Positions 8,334-45,849 are shown, numbered from the whole stretch's first letter. The stretch: 49,131 bases of DNA, filler included, from Sphacelaria rigidula (GCA_964200075.2; 2 parts of 2 records of this genome joined end to end with filler, not necessarily neighbours in it); one strand, 5' to 3'. The notes: generated by a model not told the origin, from the letters alone. Numbers and translations are program-made.

Positions 8334-8668
8334 CGTTTAAGGAAGTAGTCCTCGAAGTCGTTGCCCTTGGTCTGGGTCACGTCTTCCGTGCGGTAACGGT
8401 CATCCGCCTTGGGCTTCTTGAGCCCCTCCTTCCAGTCATCTTCCCCCCCGCTCCCCCCCGCGCTTGCCCCCCCTCCTGCGGCCGCTCCTCCCTTCCCATC
8501 CATATGTACAGTGGGGGGTGCGCCTGCTGCTGCTGTCGCTGTTGTTGTCGCGGCCGCCCCGGCCCCGGCCCCTACGCCAGTGCCCGCTGGCGGACGAGTT
8601 GGTGGCGGCGGCGGCAGCAGCTGCGCGACCGCTCCATTTCCTGTCATGTTTTGCTGCTGAGTTGCCAT
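8334..8668 (-). CDS. DDX6: DDX6/Dhh1 helicase, coding exon 1
   Basis: ATG at 8668; low-complexity Q/P/G/A N-terminus, then [36 protein letters not shown], typical of the DDX6 N-terminal segment. Donor CG|GTAAG. Intron 895-8333 (7,439 bp). Confidence 0.93.
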
Positions 8669-24527: not shown

Positions 24528-24627
24528 NNNNNNNNNNNNNNNNNNNNNNNNNNNNNNNNNNNNNNNNNNNNTTAATTAATTAANNNNNNNNNNNNNNNNN
24601 NNNNNNNNNNNNNNNNNNNNNNNNNNN
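24528..24627. other. Assembly gap with artificial linker (N44-TTAATTAATTAA-N44)
   Basis: Symmetric N runs around a 12-mer with stops in all six frames; total length exactly 100. Confidence 0.97.
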
Positions 24628-24891
24628 GAGCCTCATCTCGAAGTTAAACCTCAATTCTCACAATTTGTTGTTAGTGGGTACTCTATTTCGACGTACAGCT
24701 GTGCAACCCACGCCACTATGGGGAGGGATCGGGGACGAGATCACATCAACGAACCCCACAAGGCTTATGGGTAAGTTACAGAGATTCAGTAGTTGGCGAA
24801 AATTGTAAAAGGTGATATAGTAAACTGCCTATAGTACACTTTGTCTCGGTGACGTCATGTTCTTTTTAGCAGCGCCGTTGCGGAACTGCAC

Positions 24892-25131
24892 CTTGCCCTG
24901 CCAACTCCGACCACGCGTAGAAACGATGTCCATGGTTTCGTTGGAATCTTGAAACGCATATTCTCCCTTCATCTCTCCTTCTTTGTATACGCCGTCTTTC
25001 TCAACGATCTCCAACCCCTTGAGCACAACATCCGAATCTTCAACTGCTTTCACGAGGCCTCCGGCAGGCACGTACACAAGTGGTCCATCGGGCTCCGGCA
25101 GGATCGTGATAGGAACGATGAGTGTATCGCG
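24892..25131 (-). CDS. Giant repeat protein exon O (last visible before the gap)
   Basis: AAG|CGC acceptor; AAG|GTGCAG donor; ITILPEPDGP...EDSD begins another repeat. Confidence 0.7.
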
Positions 25132-28100
25132 CTTGTGGTTCACGTTAGGGAAACAATCGGGTTTCGAACGGGCCGAAGACAGAAGTTGTTGAAGGCCAAA
25201 CGTAACGCACACAAACGCCAAAGCAGGTAACGTACACAAACGCCAGAGCAGGTGCACGGCTTACCCGGGTAAAGCAGATAGAAACAAGTGCGATAAAGAA
25301 ATACGCGCCACTCTTTTATATCCCGTGTATCTCTCTGGTGTCCCCCAATATGTGAGAATCACACCTACAATGAAAGAGGCAGTCACACAATTCCACCGAT
25401 CCATCACCTGATGACACAAAGAGGTGTCGCTGTAGCGCCGCCAGCCGTCAACTTCGCTATCAGAGCACAAAGATCCCCGCCCATAGTTTCCGAGGTCGTC
25501 TACTGTAACGACCAAATCATCTGTACCATAAAAGTCGTTCAAGCCGGTATACATTAGTCCCGCTAAAGCTTGATTTGCTCCGGCCAGTGTCGTCCGAAAC
25601 GCTATCATTCTGTCCTCAATGCCGTCGCCAACAAGGAACAGATATCCCGCGGACCCGGTGCCCACAGAAATCGTCCCATTGCTGGCGTAGACTGTGACTT
25701 CGATGATACCTCCGTCCATAGCTTCCGGACCACCGCCAAAAGTAGGTGCTTTGCCGAGGGTAAGGTCAACGTCGCGTACAGAGAGGCCGGGTACAGAACT
25801 GCCCTGATCCTCTCGTGTGGTTAATACATCCACAGCGAGGACGATGTCCGATAGGCCGTCGTGCGTAAGCATGGATGAGTCGTATGTTGATGCGGAAGAT
25901 CCAAGCACCGGTGGGTCGTTTTCTGGTAGCACTACAAATGCAAGGATGGCGGTTGAAGTATCCCCATCCGAGTCAATCACATGCAGAGTGATTTCCTTGA
26001 TCCAGAAAGACACATGTTGGGCAACGGGTGGTGGGAAGTAGGTCAGATATCGAGTCCAGAAGGTTGGATGCGGAAAATCATGTCAACGCGCGAGTTTCCC
26101 CATGGAAAAGGCTGGAATCGTGCTGCTACCCTAATCCCGAGGAAACCACAACACAAGACACAGGAACATCTGGGTGCGTAAGATTGTTCATGGTGAATTC
26201 GTGCACTCGCAACAAAGAGCCAGCTCACCTCAAGGGTAACATGGTCCAGCTCAGATATGCCCAGTCCCGCCCAGCTGTTCCAGTTTAGGGACGATTGATA
26301 ATGCATTCCTTTCAGTGATTCTGCGACTGCCCACAATGGCCCAATGGCGGTCATTGATGAATAGAAATCTAATGGGATAAACTTGCCCTCAGCAGTTTCG
26401 TCCTCTCCTGAGACACCGGTGATGGATACCTCAGACCGCACGTTGCTTAGGAGCACCCCCCCCCATGCGACTGAAATGGTCAAGGTAACGGTATCATCGA
26501 TGGTTGATACTGGATTCTCGCCGATTGGGTCTTGAGCAAGTATCCATCGACTGTAGCTCTGTCGTGGGGTAGTACCACCGTCTGCAAGATTGTACGAAAT
26601 GTCTGCATCCAACAGGACGATGCTGGAGTTAGAGATCATGGTTGGTCGGGGGGTAATTTTGTCCGACCACCCGCAGCAATCTGCTCCAACGGTCCCAACG
26701 CGATCCTCTTCGGTGAAAAGAGGTATTTCGCTCGAGAGTGACGTCGGTATGACGAAGGTTGGAGGGTCGTTGACGGACGACACATCAAATGCCAAAAAAA
26801 TGCCGGAAGATAGCGAGCCGTTGACGCCCTCCAGCGATTTTCCAGAGTTCCCGCGGTCGTCCACTACCACCTGTAGCCAACGTATACACACCATTGAATG
26901 TTGCACCGTGACCAGTATGTAAAACATCCAACAAAATTTACGTCTCAATAAGACATCGGGGGTTCATGGGATCCACATTTTTTGCCTGCAGAACACCCTA
27001 CAAGTAGGCAGCACATTGACAAGAACGCTGCCACCAAGCGACTGTATTGCCTAGGAGATTCAAGCGGAGGTGTTACCACCGAAAAGTTTGATAAGTCTCA
27101 CCTCCACCACGTCGAGCCCACTCCAATCCTGCTTGGGTTCGTAGATAATCCCTTCAGACAAGGCTTCGTTGATATGATGAAGAGCACCCACAACTATCAA
27201 GAGTTGTTCGCTGGTGTCTAAATTTCCCATCTCCGCCACCAATCCTGCATGTCCACCCCCCAGCGAGATCTGGCCATATGTGGAGGAAATCGATAGCCTG
27301 ATCCTCGGGTTCAACGCTAGCAACTCCACACCGTTTCCTGCACCGTTGTTGTCAGCCACAATGAAAAAACCATCTGGACGACTCAGGATTCCTCCTTCGC
27401 TCGTAATATCCACGTCCGAAACCCTTACACCCGTTACAACGGCAACGATATCTTCTTTGGTCGGCACCAAAAACGCTGAGGTTGTGGAATCGGTGGCGCC
27501 TGATTCTGTGTCCAACACCAACGTCAAGTCGAAATCGCTGATTTCGAGTACGGGGGGATCGTTGATAGCGGCCACAGACAGCGCAATATCGTAACTCCGT
27601 GCGTCGCTTGTGGTATCGAGGCTATTGTGCCCCAGATCGGTGACGGCCACGTAGATTTTGTCCCAACCGTACCAGTCTCGGGGAGCGATGTATTCCATAG
27701 ACAGCAGGACTGCGTTGACTTGCCAGGATGTGCCTGATACCCGTACAGAGGGTTGCAAAGTACTGTTGGAGGAACGCTCACGGCCTTCCTCTGTCACTGA
27801 AATCCGACCGTGTTTTGCGGAAAGGTCCACCTGGCCAACAGGGGTCGCACAACAAAAATGTAAGTTGTTATCACAAAAGAGACTCGCCCATGACAACACG
27901 GGGTATCTAGGTATCGTTGCTTGCCAGGTAGGAAGCTTGACAACAAAAAACTATTGAGGTGGGTCTATATCAAACTGCGGCGCAGCATACAACCCCACTC
28001 CGAAAGTTTCACTTCAATTTTCCGGAATGGGTCGTTCCCGGTTCTCACCTGCACTATTGTCGCCCCGTGGTCGGGATCGTGGACACGTAGACCGCGGCCG

Positions 28101-31100
28101 GGTCCGCGGAGATCAATATGGCCGAACTGCGCCGGTGTCTCTCGAATACCTCCATCGTGGCAATCGTAGTCCGCCAGTCGGAACGGCGCATCTTCGTCCA
28201 CTCCTCGAATGATTTCCCCCGTGGATGAAAGGATTCCGCCGCACCACAACAGGTACGGCGGGTCGTTCACTGACTCCACGGCAGCAGACAGCACGGTCCA
28301 TCCTGTTTTCACTCCCCCGGCGCCCGTGAACCCACCGTCCGTAACCCGGAAGATAATATCGGCGTCACCACTCCAACCCGGTATCGAAGAATATGACAAA
28401 CTCGCTAGTGCGTTTGTTACCTTGTCTGGCGAACCATGTATGGTGAGGGTTTCGCCGATGGTGTAACCGGGGATACCGAAAGCTGCCCCTCCAAGATCGA
28501 CAAGCCGAAGCACTGCCCCACGCCCCCCTGGCCTGATTAATCGCGCAGACGCTCTCGCGCTTGCTCCCATGAGTCCTTTTGCGAAACTACCGGTTGCGGT
28601 CAAGTTTGCTGAAGTCTCCGAATCGCGCAGAAGAGCAATGGTCCACCTTCGCCCCCCTTCTGAACTGATTTTCTGTGCTCTAGTAGCAACTGCCACCCCA
28701 GTTCCAACATCAGGGGGAGAAAAGGTTTCAAGAGCATTGAGAGCAGTTGCAACTTCGGCGCCTGTGCTGTCGTGTGCCAGAGCAGTCGTGGAGAGACCAC
28801 CATACTGTAGGGAAAAAAAGCCCTCGACCGCGTTGTGGGCGGTAGCAACCGTGGCCGAGATCGCAGCACCACCGGACAGATGTGCACCGTGAACAGATAG
28901 CACTGGGAGGTCTTTGGGAGCGCCAGTAAATGTTATGTACCATTCCACAGTGTCTTCGTCACTGGATTCTACTCTCTTCACAAGCACGTCGGTATCCGAT
29001 CCTAACTTGGTCCAATTGTCGAGAAGCTTGAGACGGGCCTCGAGCGATTCACCTCGCTTTCCCCCGGAAACTCCTCCGAAGGACCACCAGGATCCGCCTT
29101 CGTCACTAATGGGGCCAACAGCTCGCGGGTAGATTGGTCTCGTCCAATCGTTGGTTCCACCGTAGTCAAGCCCCAGCTGGAAGTAGCCTTTTGCGCGGCT
29201 GGCGCCGGTCATGGTAACGACAATGACCATGTTTTCATGTGCTGCTGATGTGCTTACCTCCCACAGCTCTGGGATGCCACGTCCTGGAACAGTCTCAACT
29301 ACGCTCACTCCAGCTCCTCTACCGCCGAGTGTTGCTCCATCTGCTTCTATCAGAGGCATATCCCCGCCCGAGCCAAGCACGTCGAAAAGGGTTATAACCC
29401 ATTGTCGTCCACCCTGAGGGTCTGGCGAAGAGGGAATTGCGACGTCCACAGCATTTATCGAAGGCAGACTTTCCAGCGCCGCAGCCAAGTCGCGGGAGTC
29501 TGCGTTGTGAGGGATACGCTGGGTCGTATAACCGCCGACAGAAAGGGTAAAGCTACCAGAGAGAGAATTTCCAGCCACGACGGATGCTGTCTCGATTCCC
29601 ACACCATCACCGGTTAGCGATTCGCCAGAGGCCTGCATCACGGGTAGGGTGGTTGGCGCACCGAGGAACGTCACAAGCCACTTGCGACCGCCAGTGGAGG
29701 TCAGACCGCCATCCACTCGGCAAAATACGGTGATCCCCAGGACATTCAACGACGGAAGGTTCTCGAGGTTTGCTTGAATAGATTCACCGGCTTGATCACC
29801 AGTGTCGACCCCAAGATATCTATCGCCTTCGTTGGCAATCGCGTCGTGCGAGATGGGCCCAGTGCTTTCCACTTTGCACTCGTCGCACAGCTCCGAAAAA
29901 TCTAGGGTAAGGTTGAAGTTCCCCCCAACCGTCGCGTTACCATCCGCCGCGGCAAAGGTAGTGATGCTCTGCACTGGGTCAATCCTTGTCGCCGAAGTTG
30001 TCACTCGTTGCACCTCAAGCACAGAACGGTGGCTGACGCCCACAGTCATAGTTAAATATCCGTTCGTCGAATCCTCCACGTCTGCATCCGCTACGTTTAG
30101 CCCAGCTAGTTCACCAATCCTTTCTAGCACCCCTCCTTCCTTCAAGGTCATATTTACATCGTTCGTCAACGTGACTTCGGGGGGAAAGTTAACATGAGTT
30201 CCATATATCTCCACCTCTATCGAAGTCTTGCCGCCGTCGTCATCTTCGACTTGCACTCGCAGTGTGCCAACTGAAGCCGGAGCAGCGAGGAAGCCAGCTG
30301 AAGACGAAAACAGCGTGTTAATGCTGGAGATATTTCCACGGAAGGCCACCGCAGAGCTCGGTTCACCACGAGCAGATCCTATGGAAAATTCCACTGTATC
30401 TGCTACAGACCGAACAACGACGGTGTCATCCTCATTGAGCATTTCCATCCGCACGCTGAGCATCTCGCCTTCAGGAAGATCGGTATCCTCCACGCGCAGT
30501 CCGGCCAGGGGGATTCCTTCCAGATTAAGCAGTTCAACGGGTGGGGTGGTGACGGCCCAGCTGACAAGCGGGGCTTGGTTGACTGGCCTGACATTGACTA
30601 CGAACTCCCGGAGAATGGAGTAATTCTGAGTTTTGCCGCGCCTGGTCGTATTGACGACCACCGAGTGATTTCCTAGACCGGTGCTACCATTTGCGCTCAA
30701 GTAAGTCAAGGCGTCGAATGCCTCGTTGATTTCTCCCAGTGTTCCTCGGAAGGAGAGACTGGGTCTAGGGGTGCCGAACATCCCTTCAAGACCTGTGCCA
30801 GCAGAAATCGCGGCCATGGCTACAACTGCCGTGTCCGTTTCAGCGATAGGAGATAGCCCTAACGGAACGGGTGTGAGCCCAATACCCCCGGCGGTGACCA
30901 CAATGTGTACATGGAACGTAGGTGGTGTCGTACCAGCGAAAACGGCCGCATCGAAAACTGCATCTTCAAGTTGGGCCCCGCGCAGAGAAGCGGCTATGCC
31001 TTGGTCAGCGATGAACGAAGCGTTGGTAACGGTGAGATTGGGCTCAACATGAGGATCGGACACAACTACCACGCACTCCACCTCTCCAACAGCGCCTAGT

Positions 31101-34100
31101 TCATCCGATGCAGATATCCGCACCACTCCTCCTCCTTCCCACCCGTCACTGGGCGGCACAAACCAGACCTTCGGAAGTGCTTGTCTGATATCATCCAGGA
31201 AGCCCGATATGCTGAACCCCCGTGGTGTGCCTGGGGCGTCTCGGTGAAGAACGACGGTAGACACAGTTGGCGACTGTTCCATGACGAGCGACCCCGTATC
31301 AACAGAGGCATTTACGATAATGATCTCTCCATCAGTGGCATCAACATCGTCAACTATGATGCCTTCAATAGGCATCGGACCTAGGCCACCCGAACGGCGG
31401 TGTACTCTAGGTGCCACCACCTGCGGAGGGTCATTCACGGGGACCACAACGAGACTTATCGTGGAATTGGTTGTGAAAGATCCCTCGTTTTCTACCGCAC
31501 CGTTGTCACTAGCTGTGACGAAAATTTCAGCAGGTCCGAAGAAATCTCCAGCAGGTGAAAAGCAGAGACCTTCCAGGGCTCCGTTGGCCGTGTTGAGATC
31601 GGTGTCAAGGTTAACGGTGGGTGGACTCTGGGAGCGGACTCCACGGGGCATCATAGGATTGTCGCGAGGACGTAAAAACGACAATTCTCCAGCCTCGGGG
31701 GGGTCGATCCGAAGCGCAACCTGCGCGGTCAATTCCCAAAGTAATTGGGACGAGCTTCATGATGTCAAGTTTCATAGGGCAGCGGTTGCGAGCGATGTAA
31801 TGAATCGGTTCGAATAATGTGGACTGGCAATCAACTGTCGCTCTTGTTTTTCTATCGCTACCTAAAACTCCACGCGCTTCGCGATGATCAGAAAAAGGTA
31901 TACCTCGTCGTTGTGCGTCACTTGAGGCTACAGTAGCTGAGGGAGTTTCACACGTGAAAATAAAGACAAAACATACCCGTTTTTGTTCACAAGTCGAAGT
32001 ATATTTATCTTTGTTCACATTAGGGTGTACACGCGGCCAAAAACAGGCAGATACATGACTGGAATAGCCAAATTGCGACCAGAAAGGGTGACGCCCGAGA
32101 AAGGTAGAAACGAACGAGTATACCTCGCCGTTGTGGTCCAGCCTAGGGCAGGGGAAAACTCTGATGGATAACCCGCAGCTTCGCAGCTAGACACTTCCGT
32201 TTGTTTTCTCTTCCTTTTGTTTGCCGTATATGCGGATAAGTACAACTACGTGTTATCGGTAAAAAAGATTGAAATGGAGTCGAGTCCACGATGGTTTTAC
32301 ACCGCGAGAAATCTCTCTGATCGTTTTGCCTTAAAGTGATCAAAACTAAGAAGGCGAATACTCCGAGCCACTCCCCTTACACCCTCATGGATTACCAGCT
32401 GTTAATGTGCTATCCAAGGAATGGACGTGTCCCCTCACTACTAGTGTGAGGCCCTCGTTTTTGCCTTTCTGGCTACAAGAAGTCAAGTGATGTGCCACCA
32501 CGAAAATAATCTTGTTTCCACCACATTCAGCAAGCTGAGACAAATCGCATTGGTGGTAGGAGCTACAACAGAGTTGTTCATTAACTCTCGTACCTAAATG
32601 GTTGAACAAATACAAGTGTTGGGAAGAGGCACATACTTTAATTTTGTTGTCCGGTTTCTCGTGGGCGTCTGGGTCCGTCACGTACACTCCAGGTATAACT
32701 GTCCGATCTGAGTCCTCGTGTATCTCAATCGTGAAAGACGGAGACACAATGGACGGTGGATCGTTAACAGGGGCCACGATGATGTACAATGATGCCTCCG
32801 CGAGCTGCAATGCTTCGGTCGAGTACAGGTTCACCTGATCACCAACGGTGACAGTATCGGTTAGCAGCCGGTGCAAGACGTGGGTATAGAGGTAAAAACG
32901 GGTTTTGCAAGGGTGTTCACGGGATCATCTTGGGTTCGCAGCCACAGGACGTTCTCAAGTTATATGACGGTCTTAAAACGACAACGAACGTGCTTAGTTC
33001 TCGAAGTTGACAGTGAAACAGGACTAGCGCGAACTCTGCCTATACACCGATAGGCCTCTTGTCACAGTGGTTAACAGCCTGCTACAACTAGGTCCGTGTA
33101 GAACCCAGTGATTGCAGCACAACGAAACTTTTTTTTTTATCATTCTCAGGCTGGGTTCTCGTATCACCTCCAATGAACGCCCAACCTTCGCTCAGTCAGA
33201 TTTTGAACTTTCGTTTTTTGGTAGTATGGCAACCGAACCGTCATACGTTCTCGTGATGTTGGTTTCTCTTTCCTCAAGGCCTAGCGTCCAAACTCAGTCT
33301 ACGTACCTTCACAGCAGCGACTCCATTGTAGAAAGTTGCTCCTTTGAACACCGCTCCAGACAAAGCCATATTGACTTCGCGCTCTGTCCCAGTGATGGAC
33401 AACACCGATTGTCCTTGTCCGTCGGCACTGACCTGTCTGCTGTGTGCTGCAGGCAGAATCACACCGCCACCATCTGCTTCGAACGTAACGGTCACCACTT
33501 GCTCGGACGTATTCCGCCGACCAGGAGCCTGAGCTCGGATTCCTGTTAGTTCAACACTTCTACCCTCATCCACCCTGAACAAGGCCTCATCCTCGAAAAC
33601 TATCGCAGACGGAATCATTAATGGGATAACTGTGACATCAAAGGCAGCCTTTACATTCTGGGAGTAGAGTAAGTCCTGTGCGCTGCTAGTGTTGTCGTCA
33701 TCGAAAGGGTTATAAATTGCATCCACGGATACGCTAATGACGACGGTATCAACCCCATCATAGCCCCCAAGAGGCCAGTACTCCAGTGCGCCGGAGTCTA
33801 GTGCAAATTGTAGATTTTTGAGAGCACCCCTGGCAACAAGAGCACCCGCTCTGCTCTCCTCAGTGTATATCCACAATCCTGGCTGCGTATCCATGATCAG
33901 AGTACCGTTGCCAGCTGAAGAATGAGCGGTTATTGTCAGCGTTTGTTCTGAATGAACACTTAGTGCGTCTACATGCTGGATTACTATGCCGTGCAGCTTG
34001 AGTCGTGAGCCGACCTCCACAACACGAGCGTCGTGCATACTTGACGAGGATGGATTCGTAATGGTAATAGAAGGAAGATCAGGAGTCGAGCGTACGAGAA

Positions 34101-37100
34101 TGGAGACCGACGCGTTTTCCACCCAGTCGTATGCGCGTCCGTGAACCGATAGTTCGAGCACTTCCATGCCGCAGTAGTCTGCTTCTGGTAGATAAGCCCA
34201 GCTTGTCATGGCAGAGGATACATCACTCAATGTCCCGCTGAGACTCATTGATCCGAGACCATGGTGAACGATGTCCATATCGCCTATATTCGAAGCTACC
34301 TTCATCACGCCATGGTCCGCCGTGACGGTGGCTTCTACCCACGTCGTATTAAAAGTACTACCGCCGTCGGGTATCAGCGCGACGCCTAGGCTATCTAGGC
34401 GTCCGTCTTCCTCCATGGCCAACGTATCGAGTGGAACATCCCATCCTATGGGCCCCTTAGCGACGGCGAATGGATCTTGACGATGTTGGACGACGACTGT
34501 AACGATGGATGAAACTACCTCCTCATCGCCGGATCCCCAGTTTCCCAGGTCAGAAACGGTAAAGTTTACGTCGTTGCGCCCACTCTGTTGTCCGAATGGT
34601 GCAAAAAACTGGAGGAGACCCAGGACAGCATTTGCGATGTCGATGGGGGCGCTGAACGCTAGACGCGGGTAACTTCCCTCCGCCGAGCCTTCATCAAAAC
34701 GCACGCCTGGGATCCTTCCGTGCACAGTTGCCGTGCTTAAAGCGAGAGAAAGAAGGTTTCCGGCATCACCAGCTCTGATATCAACAGAAACTAGTTCACT
34801 TCCGGCAGGTTCCCTAGCATCTGGGTCGTGTACGGTGATACCAGCCAAAGGCAACAAATCGCCAGCAGACGCCACAGGCAACACGTCACCTGTCAGATCA
34901 TTAGGAACATCAATCCTCGGTGGGTCATTGATGGGACCAATCACCACGATGACCGTCTCGATGGCTGTAACGGCATGCCACCCGCCCCCTTCACCACTTC
35001 TACCCTGTCTCGCCGCAATGGAGAGCTCATCTGCACCCCAAAAGTCGGCCTTCGGGATATATCGGAGCGAGCGCAACGCGCGGTTCACGTGATCGACTTC
35101 GCCAGTCACGACCACACCCGCCCCGGTATCCTTGTTTATCGACAGCTCATCTGAGTTACTAGATAATTTCATGTCGACAACGCCGTCGGAAGCATAGATC
35201 TCTACTTGAACGGTCGGGTTCGGTGAAAAGCCTGGAACCGAAATCTCGATAGAGTCCAACAGTAGGTCCGTGTCTTCATCCATGTGCGGATTGGGGGGCA
35301 ACACGGCCAACTGGTTCACGCGGGTGATCGTAGGCGGGCTGTTGGCTTCGATCTCCACCTTTACGACTCGTGAAACTGACAGCCCGCCTGCATCCACGAG
35401 GGATATAAGAATCTTGTCTACACCCGAGAAGTCGTTAGCTGTACCGCGGTACGTAAGATCCTCCAAAGCAGATGCTATGTCTTCGAGTCGGCCGTATGCG
35501 GCTATGCTGCTGTGACCTTCTCCCTTGCCCTGCATGGATTACGGATGATATTACAGCGATTCGAGTTATTCAAGTCGAGAATAAGGGCGCTCATTCGCTC
35601 ATTAGCGCGTAGTATGTTATCTATACATACTCAATCAGCGCATATCGCCCGTTCTCGGCGAAGGTCAGTCAAATAGCGCGCTACGTGCTCGGAATGTGGA
35701 CAGTTGGTGTCACCGTGCTGTTAGGGGATCACTCGCGCCTTTTACACCGGATATTGCTTGAACACTCCATATGATGTTCGACACCGAGCACTCCTTCTTG
35801 GATACCATCGACACAAGCCTATGCTTCAAGAAAGAGCACATTTTTCTGGTGTTTAAATGTAACGACGAACTTGTCTTGAGCATACCAATAATCCGTACCT
35901 TAGTAACGTCCACGAGGCGATGCAGCTGTTGATCTGGAATCGATACCACTCCACGAACCGCCTCCACGTTGAGGGCCATAATGCCTCCTACGTCGTCGTC
36001 CGACACGCGGATACCCTCCACGGCCATCGGTGACATGCCTACTGTCCGCATGGAGCGGGGCGCGGCAAGCTCCGGAGCCCTGTTGCTGCCATCAACTAAA
36101 ATGTACAGCGTGGAAGAGCCAGAACCGCCGCCGATCCCTGCTCCTGCCATTCTCACCTCTACGGTAACGCTATCAGCCCCACGATACCGCGTGGGCACGG
36201 AGTAAATGACTTGGGCCAAAGCATGATTGAGGTCCGACAACGTTCCGATCAGTTCGGTCACCGTTGGAGACAGGATATCGATATTTACATGTCGTCTGAT
36301 CCTCGACGATGCAGGCTTCACCATGCCTCTGGAGCAACTCAACCGAGCTACGTATTGCACTTCGTGATGGCCATCTTTCATCGATGCTGTCCATGCGACC
36401 GCATGATGGATCTCAATGGCTGGAAGGTACACCACGCCACCTTCAAATCCTCTCAGAAACTCACTCTCACCGTCTTTACGATATATACGAACCGTTGGTG
36501 GTGACTCCTGGGGCACGATAGTGACGCTCCACGAAGCGGCGACGTCAAGCGACTCTCCGGAGCCGACGTTTCCCAAGTCATCAACAACTATGCTGACCGT
36601 ATCCATCGGAGCCCGCCCCTTTGTCACCTCGGACACCCGAAGCACTCCACCGCTATTCCGAAGACCCGCGTCATCGGCAATCAAGACCGGGAGATCACCA
36701 GCGTGCGGGGGTGAGCCAGATGACAGAAACGTCACTTGCCAATATCGCCCGAGACTTGGCACACCTGGCGATTTGACTAGAAGCGATCCCGTGGACACCT
36801 GGACCGCCCCTACATCTGCTAGTGCACTGAGCGCTAGGGCTAGTTCCTCCCCAGATGCAGAGGCAGGTACGGCTTGGGTTGCCTCACCGCCGGGGATCAG
36901 GGCCAAAGTGAAGGTCCCGGTGAGACTAGATGACGACGAGCCTACCTCAATGATGACCACTGACATCGATGGCTCCAAAGACGAGCTAGAAACACCATAC
37001 ACATAGGGTGTCTCGCTGGCTCCAGTGCCACCCACAGTGAGATTTTGGGAGACTACGTCGAAAGCCGGCAGAGATTCAGGTACATCAATGAGAGTTACCG

Positions 37101-39183
37101 CCCAGGAAATGCACCCGTGCAGATCAGGATCACCTCTGGCAACCACGGCGGTCGCTGCACTGTGAGGCAATATTTCCGACGAAAATACGTCTGTGGACGA
37201 TGAGTTGCCTGGCGACGTAGCGTTGAACTCCTCCGCTAGAATTATGGACTGATTCCACGCCTGGTTGTAACAGTCCGTCAACATAGCGCGAATCCCGACT
37301 TCAACGGAGGCATTTCCGGAAGCGGGGGCATCTGCTGCCAGGGGCGGAGATTGCGCAACGCGTGAATATGAATCTGTGACGGTGTCGTTGAAGAGATCTG
37401 CATCTGGGAAAATCTCTTTGAGTGGCTCGAAAAATGCGTCACATTTCAGAGCCAAAGTAAAATTCCCTTCAATGTATCCCTCGACCGCAGATGTCGTGAT
37501 CGACTGGACCATTGGAGCTGTCGGTTGCGCCAGCTCTATCCTTTGAATCTCGGGCGCTGCACGCGACGATGCAGCACCGGCGGCAAAATCTCCGGGTGGG
37601 CGGTAGTACAGCTGTTTTACAGCTGATTGGATATTCGAAAGTTTCCCTTTGATGACCAACTGCCCGGAGGAGTGTGGTTCCGGTGTTCCAGAAAAGAACA
37701 TGAGGTCGTCAGGATCGCCTAGCGCCAAGGTTCCAAGCTGCGCCTCCACGCTCACCTGTATGACGATCTCCGGCCTTTCTATTAAATCCGGGTCTCCGAT
37801 GTCCGCACCCTCCAACAAAACCTCCTGCCCCTCGTAGACCAGAACATGCTGCTGAGGTATATTCAGTGTGGGGGGGTCGTTGATGGGTGCAACAAACACC
37901 TGCGACTTCGTCCTTGCCTTTGCACCCGACACCGTCTCGTCGATGCCAGGACTATTCTCGTCATGCCAGTACGCGTATACCTCATCCAGCCCGCCCAACC
38001 ACGCGTTCCAGTACGGGCGAGGATGATATGAAACCTCGGAAAGGGCACGGGAAACGTCCGCGCTTGAACCAATCAGGTGGAATCTACGTCGGCGGGAGGC
38101 CACATGAAGGTTCGGCGGCGCTAGCGCACCCGCGGAACATCTTGCGCATCCTCCCCAGTTTTGGCTGTCCTGGAAGACGGGCGAAGTTGAGCACCAGCCC
38201 ATGCTCGAACCTCCCACACCTGCACATTCAAAGTGCGTCGTACCCCCGTCTTGATCGACAGTGAAGGGAAACTCGCACGACGTTTCTGTGACAGCCGGTC
38301 CGGTGCTCCCGTCCGCACACCACGGAGCTGGACCGCGGACATGCACATCTACCAGTTTCACGGAGTGAACTCCGTTGTCGTTAAGCGCCACCGCCCATTC
38401 TCGCCCGTAGCCTACCCTTAAGTTTGGAGCGACTGACACAGAAGCTTCCGCTCCGCCGCGTAAAGCCACTAATGCATTCTGTACCTCCTCGGCTGAAGAA
38501 TCGACTCGAAGAGGAACGGTGGTGCGAATGACATCTGCCCCCTCATTTTTGGTCACACCGTCTGCTCTCACGAGTTGCAGGCGAAACGTTCCGCTAGCCG
38601 GCGACGACCCTCGCACTAAGCGTCGAATTTCCACTGTGGAGTGCTCAAGCAAGCAGTCTAACGACAACGAAACGTTGGTTGCGCTGGTTGTTTCGCAGGA
38701 ACTTGTCATCATTTCCTGGGGACCGGCTGAGGCGAAAGTGATTCGCCAACTCTTCTCTGCATCGTCGGCATTGCTTACTGTAACACCATCGCGAATGCTG
38801 GGTAGTTGAGCTAGAGCAGCGACCAAGTCTGTGGAACTGGCGTTGAAGGATAAAGGGAGGCTCCTGTCGCCGCCGAAGCTGACATCAAACATGCCGGCCG
38901 TCATGCCATTGCCTGACCCAGATACAGTCAGCTGTTGCACTTCGTGCACGAACGGCGCCGATCCCTTAATTGCTTCGACGACCTCCACGTGCATCAACGT
39001 GGTATTCGAATTGCTAACTTCCAGAAGAGGCATGTCTCCTGCGTTAACCACAGCGTCGTCGAACGCCACCGTAATCTGCGACCACCAATACGGCGGGGTT
39101 CCGAAATGAACGCGATCAGTTTAACTTGGCTGGGATGAACGGGGACAGTGTTTGAGCGAGGGCGAAGCCCAATGGGAACATGG

Positions 39184-39218
<35 letters not shown>

Positions 39219-42200
39219 TCACATGAAAAAGTTGAATATTGAAAACACTTCATCTTTTTTCAACAAGAAATGCAATTATTGCTCTCCACCCCGTCTATGC
39301 ACACTCACCGCTTTCACACTACAAATTGTGGAGTCCCCTGCAACGGAATTGTTGGCGTTGCGAACACCGCTGACAGTGACTGCCCCCACGCCGTGCAGGG
39401 CCTCTAAGCGCTCCTTTAAAGTGCTGCCGTCACCTTGGCATGCGCCCACTGCATGCAGCCCACATGGCGGTAGCTCCTCCGGAGTAAGTGCCGCATCTGG
39501 TGCTATTTCCTGTTACGCGACAGCGAGGTCGCGTATAAGTGGTGGAGCAATCAAGAGCGAGAAAAGTGCGAGTATATTGATGGGAAAATGTACGACAACT
39601 CACTTCATATCATGAACTAACAAAATTCCGGGAAATTCTACAGCATCAAGTGCGATCAGACGCTGTCCACGATAACTTTTCCCTGCGCATGTTCCTGCCG
39701 AAAAAACGTCATTTTAATGGCCTCAATGTCCACGAGGGGCCGGTCAAACCGTTTCGCCGCTTTTCTTTCAACCGAGATAACCAAAGCTAGAGCCATGGGA
39801 ATCAGTTATGCAAACAAAATGCGCACAAAATACCAGGAGGTCTCACACCTCTGTTGTCTCGCCACGGAAGAGCAGAGCAAACGAAAGGCCCAGGTTCGCC
39901 GCCTCCGACGGTGTTGACCCGTTCATCAGTTGACACTCGATTGTCTGCATCTCTGGAATTGTTGGAGGTAAAGGCGCTGTCAATGACACCAGTTGCTCTG
40001 CAGCGGCCGTTTCGTAGGCGTCTCGGTGCTCAATCCGGACTCGAACCCCTGTACCCGTCACATTAGCCTGCTGCACCCCTACCGTGGGTAACGTCGAAAT
40101 TCGTACGGTGTGCTCACGTCCATCGACCGAAGCCATAGACCTAAAGGCTATACCCCACCGGTGTCCGCCACCGACAAATGGCCCGGCACGATTGACATGG
40201 ACGGACACACCCGCTGATCTTATCGGCTGCAGAGCTGATAGTGCCTCCCGTACGGCTTCAGCAGGAGCGTCGTGCGCCAGGCCAGGCGTTGCTTGAGGCG
40301 TCTGAAGAAACGCAACGGAGAGGGTTTGTGTTGAGCGTTCGCGTGTTACCGTCATGTTCAAGAGGTGAAAATATCTTCCAGCGAGCAACGCGTCTTGCTA
40401 CGACTCTCAATAACCATACGACACTGTCTTCATTATTCAACATATGAGCCCCCTCTCACCTCTCCTTGTATACCGGAGACCACGAGCGAAAGTGTGCCTC
40501 GTACTGGGGCAATCCCGTTGGCCAACGTGGTCACGTGTACTGCCGCACCCGTCCCAACGAGTAAGTTTACATGCGGCTCCAGGCTCGGCACGTCCCCGTT
40601 GCCTGATAAAAATGACACTGTCCATGCTAGTTCGCCCTGTGCAGATGGACCAGTGCGAGACACCCGAACTTCTCCCATAGTTTCTAGGCTGTTTAAGGCC
40701 GAGGACAGGGCACCGGCGGTCATGAACACTGATAGCGGTCCGGTTTTTACCGTATCTTGGAAGGTGTGTCCTGCGTACGTCAAGAAAAAGCTTCCGGAGA
40801 GAGGGCCTGTTCCTGCGGTGACCTCTTCAACCTATTAGCAACCATAGCGGATTAAAAATTAGTTTTTGGCGGCATCTGAAGGGTATGTTATGTGCTTGCT
40901 CGGGAAATTTCCCGGTTCTCCGATGGTAATAATCTGTTGACACTCTCCTAGACCATCACGGCCGACGCTTTCGGTGAAAAACAACTGCTGGAAGCATACA
41001 AATGTTCGAAAAACACGATGCATGAAGCACTGTACCAGTAAGGCTTTATAGGTTGCGGTACGATTTGGGCGTATTTCAATACGGCATCACCCGGGTCGAG
41101 AAAAGCAGCTACATCCCGGTCTACAGCAGTACATGAAGAATCAGCTTACCTTCATAACCGCTCCCACGGCCGCCTCAGCGCTTGATGTCCAATATATTTC
41201 GGGAAAAGGTTTACATGATCCACACGTGCGGCGCGTTGCTCGACCCGTACTTTCTTTTTCCTCATCGGCTGCTGGCGCGGTTCGACCGGTGGACCAAACA
41301 GCGGCCATGAGGGGTCGGTCTCCTGGGTCTGTGACGAAGGTTACTTCCCATTCCCACAGCATATATAAATTAGCTGTGCTATTCGTCCACGTTGTAGTGT
41401 TGCTGCTGCTGTCGTTGGTCACTACGCCGTACGTCCTATTGACACCGTCATTTAGCTTTACTACCTGGACATACCCCACGTTTGGCAGCAGATGGAGCGC
41501 TTCTGCCACCTGTTTCGCATGTGTATCGCATGGGACATGAACCGTTTCAATGTTGTGCGTCGCCTTCGGTAGCATTCGTGTGAAAAACGCTTCAAGGGTT
41601 TGAAAATGGCGAAATCTGCCTGCTATTCTTGTTCTTCGGTGCGTTTTTGTGAGGTCCCTCACCTCTTCCGAGGTTGCGTTCGCCGTGAGCTCGGACGTCC
41701 AGTACGTTCCGTCGTGGTTGGCATCAACACGATTGCGCGCGCTAACGTCCGTTGAGCCATCTGTAACCTCGATACGAAACGTACCATTGCTGGAGATTCC
41801 TTCAGACCTCAGGGAAACCCGCTGTACTTCACTTGTGAGGCTTCCCGAGACGACCTCCACAATTTCTACGCTTCCATTGGTCCAGCTTCGAGTTTCAAGG
41901 CCAGTAGTCGAAGACGACGGGATACGTTAGGGATTTCAGCATGCGTAGTATTATCACTATATTCAGGGAAATATTCCAGTATTCGTGTATGTTGCACTGC
42001 ATGTCGTACGTCCAGATAATAACTTGCAGATGACGAAATTGACACAAAATTGGTATGTAGTGTACTATTCACGGATCCAGCACACGAATCTCGGATACCA
42101 ATCCCCTTGCTCGCTGCCGGTCGAACTACAATGCCTTCGCTAGCTGGGTCCCCCTGCCCACCGCTTTCACTGACCTGATGTTATCGGTTCCTGAATATAT

Positions 42201-45200
42201 CGCATTCTCGGCCTTCAGAAGAGGCACGTCGCCCCCACGAGATAAAAACGTCACGAGGTGGCGACTCGCCACTGCCGAATTTTCAATAGAGGCGGCAGGG
42301 ACGCGAGTGACGCTTAGGTCACCTGCAGACGGTAGCGTTTCTAAAGCGGCAGCCAAATCCGCAGCGCTCCGAGACGGATCCAGAAGCGACGCTGCGGCCA
42401 TTGGCCAAGAGGTACCGTTTAAGTACGTATGGATGATGGTGTCATTTTCGGGGCCCTCGAGAGATATATAGACTTCAGCAATAGATAGATTATCTTGTGC
42501 CATCACGTCGATCTGCTGGACCTCGTACCGCCAAGGAACTGAGGTACGTATCACCTGTGTGTTGGGTTGAAAGAATGTAGTACCAGTATTTCGCTTTTCA
42601 AAAGACATTGCACAGAAAGGATCTGCAAACAATCAACAAGTGGGCCCTACAAGGTGCTGACGAGGAACACCTCGTTCCCGCAAGATGCGCAGAAAACTAA
42701 ACACTTCTCATGACAGATCGCAGAGACATAAACCCACATTTGTATGCTCGCAGCGACAAGTTGAAACAATACACAGAATCAATCGTTCCAATTTACCTGA
42801 ACTTCTGGTAGTGTTGTTTCTGCACCCCCCGTTGTTTCGATCACGGTAACGGCCGGGCCCCATTCCTCGCTTGCCGCGGCGACGGCTACTTTTTCACCAG
42901 TGGCTCCAAGTGATATATATCCTTCCCTTGCAGATAGAGCTACTGTGACTATATCGGTATCATTAGTGACCGAGAAGATATCATCAAGGCCAGGGAGCGC
43001 CACCGCCACCCCCTCCGTGGTATTCACCAAGGGAAGTATTTTCTCCGACGCAAACTGATCACCGAGAGTAGCCGGAGTGGTCGCTCCGGCCTTCACCAAA
43101 ATCGAGGAATTGACGCGCTCCTCTCCTCCCGCCCCGGAAAAACCAAGATCATTAACCTGCACGAGTATCTCGTCAATGGTATCACCTGTCGTGATCGTCC
43201 CACCTTTGGTAGCATTGGCCCTCGTAAAGAACAGAGTCGCCAACGCGTTGTTGACGTACTCAGGCTGACCGCGCAATCGTACGACCGTTTCATCATCGGC
43301 GTCATCCCTCAAGCCATTCTGTAAAGCGACTGTTGCATCCACCGCAAGGCTACCTCCCGCACTGGTCCAGATTGTGATTTCTAGGCGGCCACGCCCCCCC
43401 GGTGCACTCAAGACGTCTGGATCGGTCACTCTGACGCCTGGCACGGGCGATTCTTCGAAGCCTCTAGTGACGATGATTCGCGGCGCATCAACAGCCGGCG
43501 GGTCGTTCATCCAGCCAACGGAAATCTTGACGGAAGCTCTGGACCATGCTGCGTTCGATCTTACACGCAAACCATCATCATATACCGCCTGTCCCCCCAT
43601 GCCACCGGGGGTTGCGACAATGTCGACGCGAGCGAGGGCAACGGATCCTTGTTCATGGGGAGAGCGAACAGGAGTATCGTCAAACTCTGATCCGTTACGA
43701 TTCCAGTATCCAAAGGAATTCAGCCGTGGTTCAAACGTGAGCCCAGACATTGCGTGCGTAAGGTCCGCCGGTGAGCCTGTCATGTGCAACCGCTTGGCGC
43801 TCGTCTCCGTACCATGCACGAGTGCAATATTTTCCATGTTGCTCTCAACAAGGGTCAGATTACCAGACACTGCCAATAGCACTAAATCAACGGCGGCTAG
43901 TTCACCGACCGAGCCGCCTGTAACGATGACATTGGGAAGAACCAAGGGCTCATCTTCTTGAGTAAGCAAGACACTACCCTGAGACGGCGAACGATCAAAT
44001 TCAACAGCAAGAGGTGGATCATACGGCAGTACGCCCACTTCAAGAATCCCCGTCATCGTTCCTACTCCGCCTGCCCCGCAGTTGCCGCCATCGGCGACAG
44101 TCACGCGCACGGTATCGGTTCCTGAAAAATCAGCTGGAGCGCTGTACTCAATGTGTCCTTCGTCAAGTGCTCTCTGAAGCAACTTGAGTGATCCCTGGAG
44201 AAACAAGTCTTCTCCCGGACCTGCTGAAGCACCGCCGATCACGCGGACTCCAACAGCGTTCTTTTCGTGGATGGTGACAACCCCAGCACTTGGGGTAAGT
44301 TCCAAGCTCAGTGCTTTTCTGCCCTCTATCCCACGGATATTTGTGCAGAGATCGGAGCTGTCGTCGACGTCCAAGTCGTCGAGTACAATACTCGATATTT
44401 TGTCACCTTCACCGCCGGCCGTAACCTCGAGCTTTGGCAAATGCCCGTCAAGCCCAAGTGAACTGATCACCGGCGGATCGTTGATGGGACGGACGTAGAG
44501 ATAAACAATGCCTTCGTCCACCAGACCGCCTTCATCGACAGCTTGAACCAAAACGGCTACCTGACCCGCAAAGTTGGTGGGCGGCCAGTACGTTAGAATC
44601 TGCGCAGCCATATCTACGTCCTCGACTAAGCCTCGGAGAGCCAACGCTTGTTGCTCGCCACCTGATAAGACGTGAGACATTTCGATGTTCTCGGCCCCGC
44701 CTCTCTCCAAATCTGCCGTCGACATATTCACCTCTCCGTAGTCAGGCCGCAACTCCAGAGTCACTATTGCCCCAGGATCTGCATCGGAAACGGAGACAAA
44801 ATCTATCGCCAATGAAGTGTCTTCGTCGAAGTAGTGCGCCGGTGACGGATAGCTCAGCTTGGGCTTGTCATTGACTGGATTGACAATCACGGCAAATTGT
44901 TTTTCCGCGTCTAGCATGACATCGTCTCTCCCTTCACTGAGATCACTAACCCACACGTGAAGCTGATCGGTCCCACTCCAGTCCACCGGTGGGCGGTACT
45001 CTAACCGTTGTAGTGAACGATTGAGCTCCCGAAGGCCCCCACGCGCCCAGAACTCGCCTGAACCATCCGATTGATCTCCGCTGAGCAGGTAAAGCCCACC
45101 GGCAGAAGCTAAAGGAAGCTGAAGGTTTCCTATTCCAGCAATGACTTTGACTTCCCACATAGCATCTATCTTGCCCGACTCATCGGGATCAGCCAACTGA

Positions 45201-45373
45201 ATTCCCTGTCCCGCGTTTAGAACAAGTCTGGTGTCCTCTTTGCCGATGAACGTGTTGTCCGGTGGCCCTTGGATTGAAGGAGGATCGTCAACAGGGAAGA
45301 TGTGAACTTGAAAGGAGAATACGGTGTATCCCCGAGGAGATGAAGATTCCGGATTGTAGTCCCATGCTTCTAC
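24892..45373 (-). CDS. Giant adhesin-like protein with cadherin-like/Ig repeats, EVQ repeats and an FN2-like module; partial, 15 exons, about 5,345 aa
   Basis: Exons joined in frame through canonical GT-AG sites (listed individually). Recurrent PVNDPP...DxD...LxYxPxxDFxGxD motifs and EVQ...GxFxL...ALExL...WxVTF...GDxP motifs. No start or stop codon among these exons. Confidence 0.9.
25408..25995 (-). CDS. Giant repeat protein exon N
   Basis: AAG|GAA acceptor; CAG|GTGATG donor; PENDPP...YTGLNDFYGTD. Confidence 0.82.
26229..26870 (-). CDS. Giant repeat protein exon M
   Basis: ACAG|GTG acceptor; GAG|GTGAGC donor. Confidence 0.87.
27102..27830 (-). CDS. Giant repeat protein exon L
   Basis: CCAG|GTG acceptor; GAG|GTGAGA donor. 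Confidence 0.87.
28049..31720 (-). CDS. Giant repeat protein exon K (1,224 codons)
   Basis: GCAG|GTT acceptor; CAG|GTGAGA donor. Confidence 0.9.
32637..32834 (-). CDS. Giant repeat protein exon J
   Basis: CAG|GTG acceptor; AAA|GTATGT donor; VAPVNDPP...EDSD...VTDPD. Confidence 0.85.
33307..35529 (-). CDS. Giant repeat protein exon I (741 codons)
   Basis: GCAG|GGC acceptor; AAG|GTACGT donor; cadherin-like repeats. Confidence 0.9.
35899..39075 (-). CDS. Giant repeat protein exon H (1,059 codons; includes FN2-like module)
   Basis: GCAG|ATT acceptor; AAG|GTACGG donor. Confidence 0.9.
39184..39217. repeat. (TGT)n microsatellite in intron G-H
   Basis: About 11 perfect trinucleotide units. Confidence 0.9.
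39309..39509 (-). CDS. Giant repeat protein exon G (absent from the ORF track)
   Basis: AACAG|GAA acceptor; GCG|GTGAGT donor; EIAPDAA...LKERLEALHGVGAVTV continues the repeat begun in exon F. Confidence 0.82.
39849..40301 (-). CDS. Giant repeat protein exon F
   Basis: CAG|ACG acceptor; GAG|GTGTGA donor. Confidence 0.8.
40460..40831 (-). CDS. Giant repeat protein exon E
   Basis: TAG|GTT acceptor; GAG|GTGAGA donor; EVQ-type repeat. Confidence 0.82.
41150..41509 (-). CDS. Giant repeat protein exon D
   Basis: CAG|GTG acceptor; AAG|GTAAGC donor; ALHLLPNVG...WEVTF...GDRP. Confidence 0.82.
41663..41885 (-). CDS. Giant repeat protein exon C
   Basis: AAG| acceptor with upstream CTAAC branch motif; GAG|GTGAGG donor. 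Confidence 0.72.
42175..42554 (-). CDS. Giant repeat protein exon B
   Basis: CACAG|GTG acceptor; AG|GTCAGT donor (phase 2, chosen for frame compatibility with exon C); EVQ repeat. Confidence 0.75.
42797..45373 (-). CDS. Giant repeat protein exon A (859 codons)
   Basis: CCAG|GTAGAA acceptor; CAG|GTAAAT donor; several cadherin-like repeats. Confidence 0.88.
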
Positions 45374-45849
45374 CTGGTGAATGTCGGCGGGTAGCGGCAG
45401 GAAAGGACGAGTGCAATGAGCAACACAGATTCCAGGAAGACATGTCTTCTCCAGTGTTGTGTTATCAACTGACGTGGCCAGCAAAGACTTGCTTGCGACG
45501 CAAACACCGATACAGCAAGTTGATGATCTGAGAAGGTGAAGCACATTACCGCATAAATGCTTCATGTTTCCCAGTCCTTACGAATCGCTTATTCATGTAT
45601 ATCTTGTGACTATAATACCAAAAATACCATCTGGTTACCGTCTGAGACCGGGAAAATATTCCCCAAGCAACCTACCAGTATTGCCTGTCCGGTTTTACTG
45701 AGAAACGTACTCCCCTAGTAGATTTTGACATTCCTCAGCTTTTAGCTCGTCCAGATGTTCATGCTGTATGTGAACATGGGTAGGATCATTACACTGTACT
45801 GTGGTGTACTATATTATGCTGCGCTGAATTTTGGACTACTGTACATATC

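Follow-up and report, generated by a model that had tools for sequence, protein, structure and literature searches.

A giant spliced gene of Sphacelaria rigidula that combines repeats of bacterial surface-protein type with nested arrays of a phage-related domain

Does the alga Sphacelaria rigidula encode a giant protein built from repeats of the kind known from bacterial adhesins, and what would such a protein do for a eukaryotic cell? The question is raised by a window of 49,131 nucleotides (the whole stretch of DNA analyzed here, parts of two records of assembly GCA_964200075.2 joined with filler), for which an initial annotation had proposed a eukaryotic multi-exon gene at 24892-45373 with a product of more than 5,300 amino acids (aa). 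We found that the gene lies on the minus strand, a detail that the initial annotation did not give, and that there 14 visible exons and 13 GT-AG introns of 158-916 bases, running from 45373 to about 24886, join into 5,405 codons without a stop. This result bears out the proposed size and the in-frame series of exons, and it corrects the number of exons, which had been given as 15. The product carries two kinds of repeat, an immunoglobulin (Ig)-like unit with a VNDPP motif (type-1) and a second unit (type-2); the spliced model holds 25 of the former and 13 of the latter, in agreement with the 20 or more and approximately 13 originally counted. We consider it close to certain that this is a real, nuclear, spliced and conserved eukaryotic gene. 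The protein is of a known kind, a giant repeat adhesin or matrix protein, and its features of wider interest, neither of which the initial annotation had noticed, are the separate fold of the unnamed type-2 domain, shared with phage virion proteins, and the nested architecture.

The gene model starts from a row of stop-free frames on the minus strand between 45577 and 24832, with lengths of 932, 168, 261, 132, 184, 78, 1136, 754, 179, 1263, 296, 306, 273 and 143 aa; the plus strand and the rest of the window contain no comparable row of long frames. For each pair of neighboring frames, every frame-keeping GT...AG combination was listed and the acceptor was picked by continuity of the repeat pattern, with one clearly best donor at each junction. 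With a slash at the exon edge, the donors are CAG/GTAAAT, CAG/GTCAGT, AAG/GTAAGC, GAG/GTGAGA and GAG/GTGTGA, followed by GCG/GTGAGT, AAG/GTACGG, AAG/GTACGT and AAA/GTATGT, and finally by CAG/GTGAGA, GAG/GTGAGA, GAG/GTGAGC and CAG/GTGATG.

As had been stated, neither terminus of the protein is visible. Exon 1 opens at an acceptor site (45373), so that earlier exons are missing, and its counterpart in a relative, P0188, likewise begins matching at model residue 1; at the other end, runs of N lie beyond approximately 24886. What may follow there is illustrated by P0086, a database protein of 5,148 aa that extends about 1,340 aa past the last visible exon, with more type-1 units, an ELWxxDGT region and a cysteine-rich tail. 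Nothing in the window is collinear with these last ~1,340 aa, which give only scattered matches at the level of type-1 similarity. Likewise, the ELWxxDGT model TIGR04534 reaches 92 bits in P0086 and stays below its cut-off of 65 bits in the window, where the 3' part of the gene is missing. The 5,405 aa encoded in the window are the middle of a protein whose full length is probably about 7,000 aa or more. Within the last ~300 residues of P0086 the ELWxxDGT repeat is followed by the cysteine-rich stretch, and the type-1 matches include a JGI protein, P0204, named “ELWxxDGT repeat protein,” which has a cadherin domain. Scans of JGI metagenomes with the exon-1 and exon-7 alignments returned 191 and 594 stretches, which were pattern matches only, none of them encoding a relative, and a literature search on ELWxxDGT found no papers.

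Comparison with relatives provides the principal support for the spliced model. P0086 is 39.3% identical to it over 3,894 columns (model residues 1563-5387), with zero gaps at all seven junctions between exons 7 and 14, and its residue 1 falls on model residue 1563, where exon 7 begins. Judging from this alignment, the genome that encodes P0086 seems to lack introns 7-13. Other open reading frames (ORFs) correspond to single exons. For instance, the exon-7 ORF has 27 further counterparts at 45-99% identity, nearly all of which cease matching at 2608-2621, the last residue of the exon being 2621. Similarly, P0186, P0188 and P0190 match exon 1 (61-87% identity), P0187, P0189 and P0191 match exon 8 (59-86%), and P0099, P0194 and P0195 match exon 10 (86%, 67% and 54%). 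Because these ORFs stop at or match single exons, several exon boundaries are apparently common to relatives. The relatives form at least 27 sequence clusters, and neither they nor this protein are named in the databases searched. Expression and the exact splice sites are predicted, and the splicing is supported by the comparison with relatives.

These observations bear directly on whether the locus could reflect bacterial contamination or a chimeric assembly, an explanation that is already contradicted and that we regard as extremely improbable. It could appeal to the bacterial origin of the closest named relatives, to the metagenome label of one run that contains the stretch, and to the assembly gap adjoining the gene; yet the frame opens only once the 13 GT-AG introns are removed, ORFs matching single exons occur in many relatives, and exons of eukaryotic DEAD-box and SPC12 genes lie on the same sequence (Table 1). 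In addition, contigs from three runs, belonging to two studies, cover the stretch compared collinearly at even depth, one of them spanning 25101-39174, and the only break that the assemblies have in common is the (TGT)n run at 39184-39217. The genomic contigs of four runs read straight through the introns; the sole joint reported among the runs, 39336/39401, was rejected as an opposite-strand artefact in a low-depth run. The break itself lies at a perfect (TGT)x11 microsatellite in intron 6, where all three deep assemblies interrupt their contigs.

Could the locus instead be a decaying pseudogene or remnant, cut at the gap and unexpressed? No RNA-labelled run contains the stretch (35700-45600 checked; the four runs aligned, X1, X3, X5 and X4, are genomic contigs), which would agree with such decay, as would the transposon-like fragments and tandem repeats just upstream, at 46.4-48.3 kb. 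The C-terminal ~1,340 aa of the relative that are not in the window point the same way, but the missing 3' part coincides with the N runs and is therefore an assembly problem and not a deletion. Against decay stand 5,405 codons without a stop or a frameshift, together with the variation among runs. Of 99 single-nucleotide polymorphisms (SNPs), the 40 listed comprise 25 in 8,083 exonic bases and 15 in 2,542 non-exonic bases, a lower density in the exons. The exonic indel, a 3-base deletion at 33694 (exon 8) in run X3, is in frame, whereas a 1-base indel at 33128/9 and a 2-base insertion in run X4 (CG behind 40388, in the intron 40302-40459) are intronic; this pattern fits coding sequence. A pseudogene is accordingly very unlikely in our assessment, although somewhat less remote than contamination.

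With the gene established as the more credible reading, we turn to its backbone. An iterated profile search, seeded with one unit and run first over the 1,074 ORF pieces that the six frames of the window yield and then over the spliced model, found 26 type-1 pieces in the raw ORFs, all in this gene and on this strand. On the spliced model they become 25 units, 24 of them clear (23-139 bits) and one marginal (E 0.025). A unit is approximately 125-140 aa long (full-length units measure 118-133 aa in the profile alignment and up to ~140 aa in MAFFT), and its consensus of 128 match columns carries E-D near the start, then G-I-x-V-x-D-x-D, a variable middle, L-x-L-x-G-x-L-x-x-V-N-x-A-L-x-x-L-x-Y-x-P-x-x-D-F-x-G-x-D-x-V-x-V-x-V-x-D-x-G, and finally V-x-P-V-N-D-P-P. 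The motifs initially described for these repeats (PVNDPP, ED, DxD and LxYxPxxDFxGxD) are present, but in a looser form than that description implied. Exact matches to [VILM]ND[PAK]P number 10 where shuffling gives a mean of 0.02, and those to the strict LxYxPxxxFxGxD-type pattern number five where it gives 0.01; the remaining units are degenerate. Residues E6-D7, D19xD21, D101 and N125-D126 are nevertheless kept in most units covering those columns; among such units, N125 is conserved in 12/16, D126 in 13/16, P127 in 12/16, P128 in 15/15, and D19 and D21 in 11/15 each.

The backbone consists of roughly 25 type-1 units in a row, Ig-like beta-sandwiches of a family found in bacterial giant surface proteins (Big_9, “bacterial cadherin-like” or tandem-95-like). 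The Pfam cut-off of 23.6 bits for Big_9 (PF17963) is exceeded by the exon-8 ORF (30.7 bits) and the exon-1 ORF (30.1 bits), and the other 10 of the 12 exon ORFs have no Big_9 match at E <= 0.01. Cadherin_5, which the initial annotation had named for checking together with Big_9, scores below its Pfam cut-off, as does Cadherin_4, and classical cadherin (PF00028) gives no match at E <= 0.01 in the 12 exon ORFs. The NCBIfam tandem-95 model (NF012211, cut-off 90 bits) reaches at best 59.7, 31.2 and 20.6 bits and is matched only over positions ~45 to 95; type-1 units do not have its repeat length of ~95 residues, and bacterial tandem-95 proteins also hold a longer unit of ~120 aa. The type-1 profile of the window itself matches bacterial “tandem-95” and like proteins over positions 3-128 with 45-81 bits per unit, and on this ground, together with the two ORFs above the Big_9 cut-off, the description of the repeats as similar to those of bacterial giant adhesins holds. 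All named type-1 relatives are bacterial (Archangium, Paenibacillus, Gammaproteobacteria, Verrucomicrobiota and Gemmatimonadota). As a lead only, the nearest Atlas clusters are eukaryotic (Oomycota, Euglenozoa) as well as bacterial, and in the Oomycota and Euglenozoa clusters 15-40% of the members have Cadherin_4 or Big_9. Against sequences in the PDB, the type-1 profile found nothing below E 0.68.

The likeness to bacterial giant surface proteins with Big_9, Cadherin_4, Cadherin_5 or “tandem-95” units, such as the 3,661-aa Archangium protein P0001, extends to a similar unit spacing (~120-145 aa), to the acidic xNDxP motif at the boundary and to the core LxYxP...G.D. Big_9, Cadherin_5 and Cadherin_4 are reported to be frequent in huge bacterial proteins and to occur in extracellular ones (PMC11573180). 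The gene described here differs in that it is eukaryotic and bears introns, in that its units are old and divergent instead of being near-identical tandem copies, and in that three of its units are split by nested type-2 arrays, a domain carried by none of the eight bacterial proteins checked.

The predicted structures agree with this assignment at moderate confidence. In the AlphaFold model of exon 7, with a mean predicted local distance difference test score (pLDDT) of 63.7, the type-1 parts mostly lie at 65-89, and the modelled unit folds as a beta-sandwich that includes a single short helix. Type-1 finds its closest structural counterpart in the non-catalytic domain of human B4GALNT1 (residues 141-256; 9H6L, 9H6K and 9H6J; Z 13.1-13.3), which superimposes on a split type-1 unit with a root-mean-square deviation (rmsd) of 2.1-2.3 A over 112-114 aligned residues at 20% identity, the next unrelated structure being at about Z 8. 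B4GALNT1 differs in being a Golgi glycosyltransferase with one such domain, and the relationship is structural only, coming from a second look at the Foldseek list with the 1,059-residue model; the accessible portion of the B4GALNT1 paper contains no description of the matched domain. The same re-comparison of the Foldseek candidates placed pilins, cohesins, PAD N-terminal domains and protocadherins at Z 6.7-8. Metazoan cadherins and protocadherins are likewise chains of beta-sandwiches with acidic boundary motifs, and protocadherin ectodomains are weak fold matches (Z 6.7-6.9; Foldseek E 4e-5 to 7e-4). Compared with classical cadherins, however, type-1 units are longer and contain a short helix, PF00028 is not matched, and no transmembrane or catenin-binding part is visible here. 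A literature search for cadherin-like repeats in the extracellular matrix of brown algae returned only unrelated work on Phytophthora.

The matches of the whole exon-7 model in Foldseek were set aside as generic strings of beta-sandwiches, with template-modelling (TM) scores of at most 0.11 relative to the query. They nevertheless suggest another identity for the protein, namely a flagellar or otherwise specialized surface glycoprotein, of the kind represented in Chlamydomonas by the mastigoneme proteins and the giant flagellar membrane glycoprotein, in place of an adhesin of the wall or matrix. The whole exon matches FMG1B of Chlamydomonas (9gos) and the mastigoneme filament (9b4h) at E ~3-5e-4, but with a probability of 0.15 and TM-scores below 0.1, as expected of general beta-sandwich strings, and no specific domain is held in common with either of them. 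We therefore consider a flagellar role unlikely and retain the adhesin or matrix protein as the preferred reading.

How are the two kinds of repeat arranged? They had been described as interleaved, and both do occur in one gene; on the spliced model, however, the three type-2 arrays sit inside type-1 units and not between them (Table 1). The profile positions of the type-1 parts on the two sides of the arrays are complementary, which supports the nesting. In the AlphaFold model of exon 7, the halves around array 2 meet, structural matches of 90-120 aligned residues span the insertion from residues 396-404 to 852-858 of that model, and the split unit overlays uninterrupted single domains of solved structures. 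The nesting of type-2 arrays in type-1 units is thus shown at the level of the repeat profiles and supported by a model of modest quality. A literature search found no paper describing such an architecture of type-2 units nested in a rod of Ig-like units.

The inserted domain belongs to a family without a name. Twelve type-2 units of ~100-125 aa were found in the raw ORFs, all in this gene and on this strand, and the thirteenth, spread over exons 5-7, becomes visible only after splicing (model 1519-1588, E 1.4e-06). The first part of the pattern reads E-V-Q-x-V ... G-x-F-x-L-x-x-x-G-x-x-T-x-x-I-x-x-x-A-S and the second A-L-x-x-L-P-x-I-x-x-V-x-V ... W-x-V-T-F ... G-D-x-P-x-L ... G-x-G-x-x-V-x-V. 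Four single units had no credible match in Pfam at E <= 5, and 14 other type-2-rich proteins contained no Pfam family that plausibly represents the domain. Kinship with type-1 was considered and rejected (profile-profile probability 0.3%). Among 1.84 billion representative sequences, the 12-unit profile matched 6,450 proteins at E <= 0.001, of which 406 at E <= 1e-30; some type-2 proteins are 7,000-7,800 aa long, one has 46 matched stretches, and those scanned also contain TIG, fn3, Filamin and PA14 domains.

Relatives with solved structures are found on phage particles. In the PDB, the type-2 profile matched chain Ma of 9D93 (“tail tip cage, gp23”) in three stretches (E 9.5e-19, 70.3 bits); according to a preprint, this entry is the tail tip of mycobacteriophage Bxb1. 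The structure predicted for a single type-2 unit (mean pLDDT 64.0, core 72-86) was compared with 48,161 representative chains, and the same chain, 9d93_Ma, led with Z 10.8 (rmsd 2.9 A, 104 aligned), followed by 9d9w_Aa, a Bxb1 capsid-and-portal chain (Z 10.4, 2.3 A, 88 aligned), and 8giu_1 of phage Patience (Z 9.0, 2.4 A, 84 aligned). The next matches dropped to Z 6.2 and below and comprised phage tail, FliD and RRM-like folds. A type-2 unit inside the exon-7 model recovered the same three phage chains (Z 11.1, 10.9 and 9.9). Foldseek, less clear here than the comparison with representative chains, returned nothing for the type-2 model at E <= 0.001, its best being Bxb1 chains at 3.8e-3 and 6.3e-3, and PHROGs showed weak matches of type-2 to phage tail families. 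Two further candidates were discarded: designer pentatricopeptide proteins in the PDB (E 1.7e-10 and weaker), whose single stretches have i-E ~500 and match in a helix only, and gp23 of mycobacteriophage Douge, which is a different gp23. A literature search on “tail tip cage” found no papers.

Type-2 is therefore an alpha/beta domain of an unnamed family that is also present on mycobacteriophage capsids and tail tips. It resembles the Bxb1 tail-tip cage gp23 (9D93), the Bxb1 capsid chain (9D9W / 9D9X) and the Patience chain (8GIU) both in sequence, with the repeated G-F-L...T..I..AS...AL..L, and in fold, and it differs from these virion domains in that its host is a eukaryote, that 13 copies occur in one giant cellular protein, and that identity is only 18-27%. 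A more far-reaching and tentative proposal, to which we give less than an even chance, is that type-2 represents a very large family without a Pfam entry, common to giant surface proteins of protists and to virions of actinobacteriophages, and that it may serve as a surface-exposed module binding ligands, perhaps glycans, carried in looped-out arrays nested in the Ig-like units of a calcium-stiffened rod.

One further module accompanies the first array. Fibronectin type II (fn2) domains are described mainly from animals; the domain found here is a full-length match to the fn2 profile above its cut-off (Table 1), in an algal protein where type-2 units precede it and type-1 units come after it. 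Its cysteines C267, C284, C295 and C310 are invariant in 28 sequences, as are the aromatic residues, and confidence in the corresponding part of the structure model is low (pLDDT under 50).

The bacterial character of the type-1 units raises the question of their origin. The initial annotation had suggested that the domains were acquired horizontally and later given introns, a proposal that our analysis does not support in that form. A tree was built from 102 nearly full-length type-1 units over 124 columns, units covering fewer than 95 profile positions being dropped; it included 16 units from the window, 19 from P0086, 21 from P0170 and 46 from nine bacterial proteins (at most six per protein), with P0086 and P0170 assumed to be eukaryotic in the labelling. 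Its backbone is unresolved, with 51 of the 99 inner branches open. The eukaryote/bacterium label needs eight changes, where shuffled labels need 33.9 on average, and no more than one change is forced by well-supported branches. Units of the window pair with P0086 units at matching positions 13 times, and terminal branches are 0.2-1.2 long, unlike the often near-identical units within one bacterial protein. The repeat array is thus old and stable in this lineage, and since its units pair one-to-one with those of a relative that is 39% identical, and single-exon ORFs recur, any transfer would be old.

A transfer of the gene or of its type-1 array from bacteria, with introns gained afterwards, remains an improbable account overall, although it carries more weight than the other alternatives considered here. 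It draws on the fact that all named sequence relatives are bacterial, that bacterial units score as high on the profile of the window (up to 81 bits) as those of the eukaryotic relative, that the ELWxxDGT model is an NCBI model built for the annotation of prokaryotes, and that P0086 reads through the positions of introns 7-13, so that those introns are not in all members of the family. The tree, however, shows neither a nesting within bacteria nor a direction; the nearest type-1 clusters in the Atlas include Oomycota and Euglenozoa (again as a lead only); the one-to-one pairing, the long terminal branches and the recurrence of ORFs matching single exons in relatives speak for long residence; and the type-2 and fn2 parts gave no bacterial signal in the searches made. 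A bacterial origin is thus possible, with the direction of transfer shown neither way.

Table 1. Coordinates of the gene, its domains and the neighboring features in the window. Model, residues of the spliced protein model; profile, positions of the type-1 profile; a slash marks the exon edge in splice sites.
Feature	Position	Strand	Description
Exon 1	42797..45373	-	859 codons; 5-6 type-1 units; acceptor CAG/GTAGAA, donor CAG/GTAAAT
Exon 2	42175..42554	-	First type-2 unit
Exon 3	41150..41885	-	Type-2 unit carrying a long insert
Exon 4	40460..40831	-	Type-2 unit
Exon 5	39849..40301	-	One type-2 unit and the beginning of the next
Exon 6	39309..39476	-	56 codons; middle of the type-2 unit divided over exons 5-7
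Exon 7	35899..39075	-	1,059 codons; end of a type-2 unit, two type-2 units, fn2, type-1 units, nested type-2 pair, more type-1 units
Exon 8	33307..35529	-	741 codons; six type-1 units in succession
Exon 9	32637..32834	-	66 codons; junction of two type-1 units, with VNDPP
Exon 10	28049..31720	-	1,224 codons; type-1 units, four nested type-2 units (~28505-29887), rest of a type-1 unit
Exon 11	27102..27830	-	Type-1 units
Exon 12	26229..26870	-	Type-1 units
Exon 13	25408..25995	-	Type-1 unit
Exon 14	24886..25131	-	3' end undefined; frame open to 24832, similarity to P0086 stops near 24886
fn2 domain	38146..38277	-	PF00040, 26.3 bits vs cut-off 22.2, profile positions 1-42 of 42
Array 1			Before: profile 14-57, model 788-837 (marginal); inserted: 7 type-2 units and fn2; after: profile 59-128, model 1888-1964
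Array 2			Before: profile 4-91, model 1975-2061; inserted: 2 type-2 units; after: profile 92-128, model 2386-2422
Array 3			Before: start of unit, by eye only; inserted: 4 type-2 units; after: profile 64-128, model 4519-4583
Split type-1 unit, N-terminal part	37579..37839	-	Profile 4-91
Nested type-2 pair	36607..37218	-	Model 2182-2249 and 2294-2376
Split type-1 unit, C-terminal part	36496..36606	-	Profile 92-128
N runs (assembly gap)	24528-24571 and 24584-24627	.	Just downstream of the last visible exon
DEAD-box helicase exon	8333-8803	-	Recognized by eye
DEAD-box helicase exon	684-935	-	Pfam DEAD, E 2.5e-11
SPC12 (microsomal signal peptidase 12 kDa subunit) ORF	21021-21272	-	PF06645, 26.5 bits vs cut-off 23.6

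The surroundings of the gene are those of a eukaryotic genome, and the runs in which the sequence occurs bear the label of an alga. The two DEAD-box exons lie ~7.4 kb apart, which implies long introns in this genome beside the short ones of the giant gene; the rest of the DEAD-box gene was not found between 3 and 9 kb, and the exon recognized by eye ends in a 12-residue motif that we take to be the one of DDX6/Dhh1-type helicases. The SPC12 ORF probably belongs to another eukaryotic gene as one of its exons. AT-rich tandem repeats with periods of 31-41 bases and ACGT-palindrome motifs occupy 22919-23353, on the downstream side of the assembly gap. Upstream of the gene, at 46378-46845, a pair of similar ORF fragments points in opposite directions on the two strands (...YVDADYGKD...RRSVSDGAVL...); they have no Pfam match and presumably resemble the RNase H end of a reverse transcriptase of Ty1/copia type. 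At 47049-47530 and 48006-48259 there are tandem arrays whose periods are 42-43 and 85 bases and whose copy numbers range from 2.3 to 11.4. These arrays and the transposon-like fragments (46.4-48.3 kb) may separate exon 1 from the missing 5' exons.

What, then, might the protein do? Its 5,405 aa are acidic (D+E 12.6% vs K+R 6.3%; net charge -339) and contain 58 N-x-S/T sequons where ~31 are expected; no convincing membrane span was found in them, the best 19-residue window scoring 1.82 and containing D and E. Acidity, sequons, the fn2 module and the TIG, fn3, Filamin and PA14 domains of other type-2 proteins make an extracellular location likely. We propose that the protein would be secreted and glycosylated and would act in adhesion or as a scaffold at the cell surface, in the wall or in the matrix. 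Its acidic boundary motifs (E-D, DxD, D and xNDPP) would bind calcium and make the chain rigid, as happens in cadherins and in bacterial adhesins; we place this calcium dependence, which is suggested by the motifs, at about even odds. The type-2 arrays would loop out of the rod as ligand-binding side branches, perhaps for glycans, and the fn2 module would be a further ligand-binding part.

Taken as a whole, a real giant extracellular repeat rod, stiffened by calcium and bearing looped-out type-2 arrays and an fn2 module, is in our judgment the probable explanation of the locus. Several observations weigh against it, beginning with the lack of an RNA-labelled run mentioned above. Several acceptors are ambiguous (exon 6, for instance, could begin at 39476 or 39510), and both protein termini lie outside the visible part. 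Calcium binding is proposed from the resemblance of motifs only, with the exact NDPP in 10 of ~24 units. The structure models are modest (mean pLDDT 63.7 and 64.0, and below 50 in the fn2 region), and the low-probability fold matches of the whole exon include ciliary and nuclear-pore chains, so that an intracellular location is possible. Finally, the exonic SNPs, 14 non-synonymous and 11 synonymous among the 40 of 99 sites listed, indicate only moderate constraint.

For algae and other protists the annotation of giant extracellular repeat proteins is poor, and although the finding by itself opens no long-standing question, it adds three cases to their description: a “bacterial” Big_9/cadherin-like unit with a long and stable history as a component of a eukaryotic protein, an unnamed domain family that joins surface proteins of protists with the decorations of phage particles, and arrays of one domain nested in another. 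If the protein is indeed a calcium-dependent adhesion or matrix protein, it would offer a handle on adhesion and wall organization in a lineage without classical cadherins.

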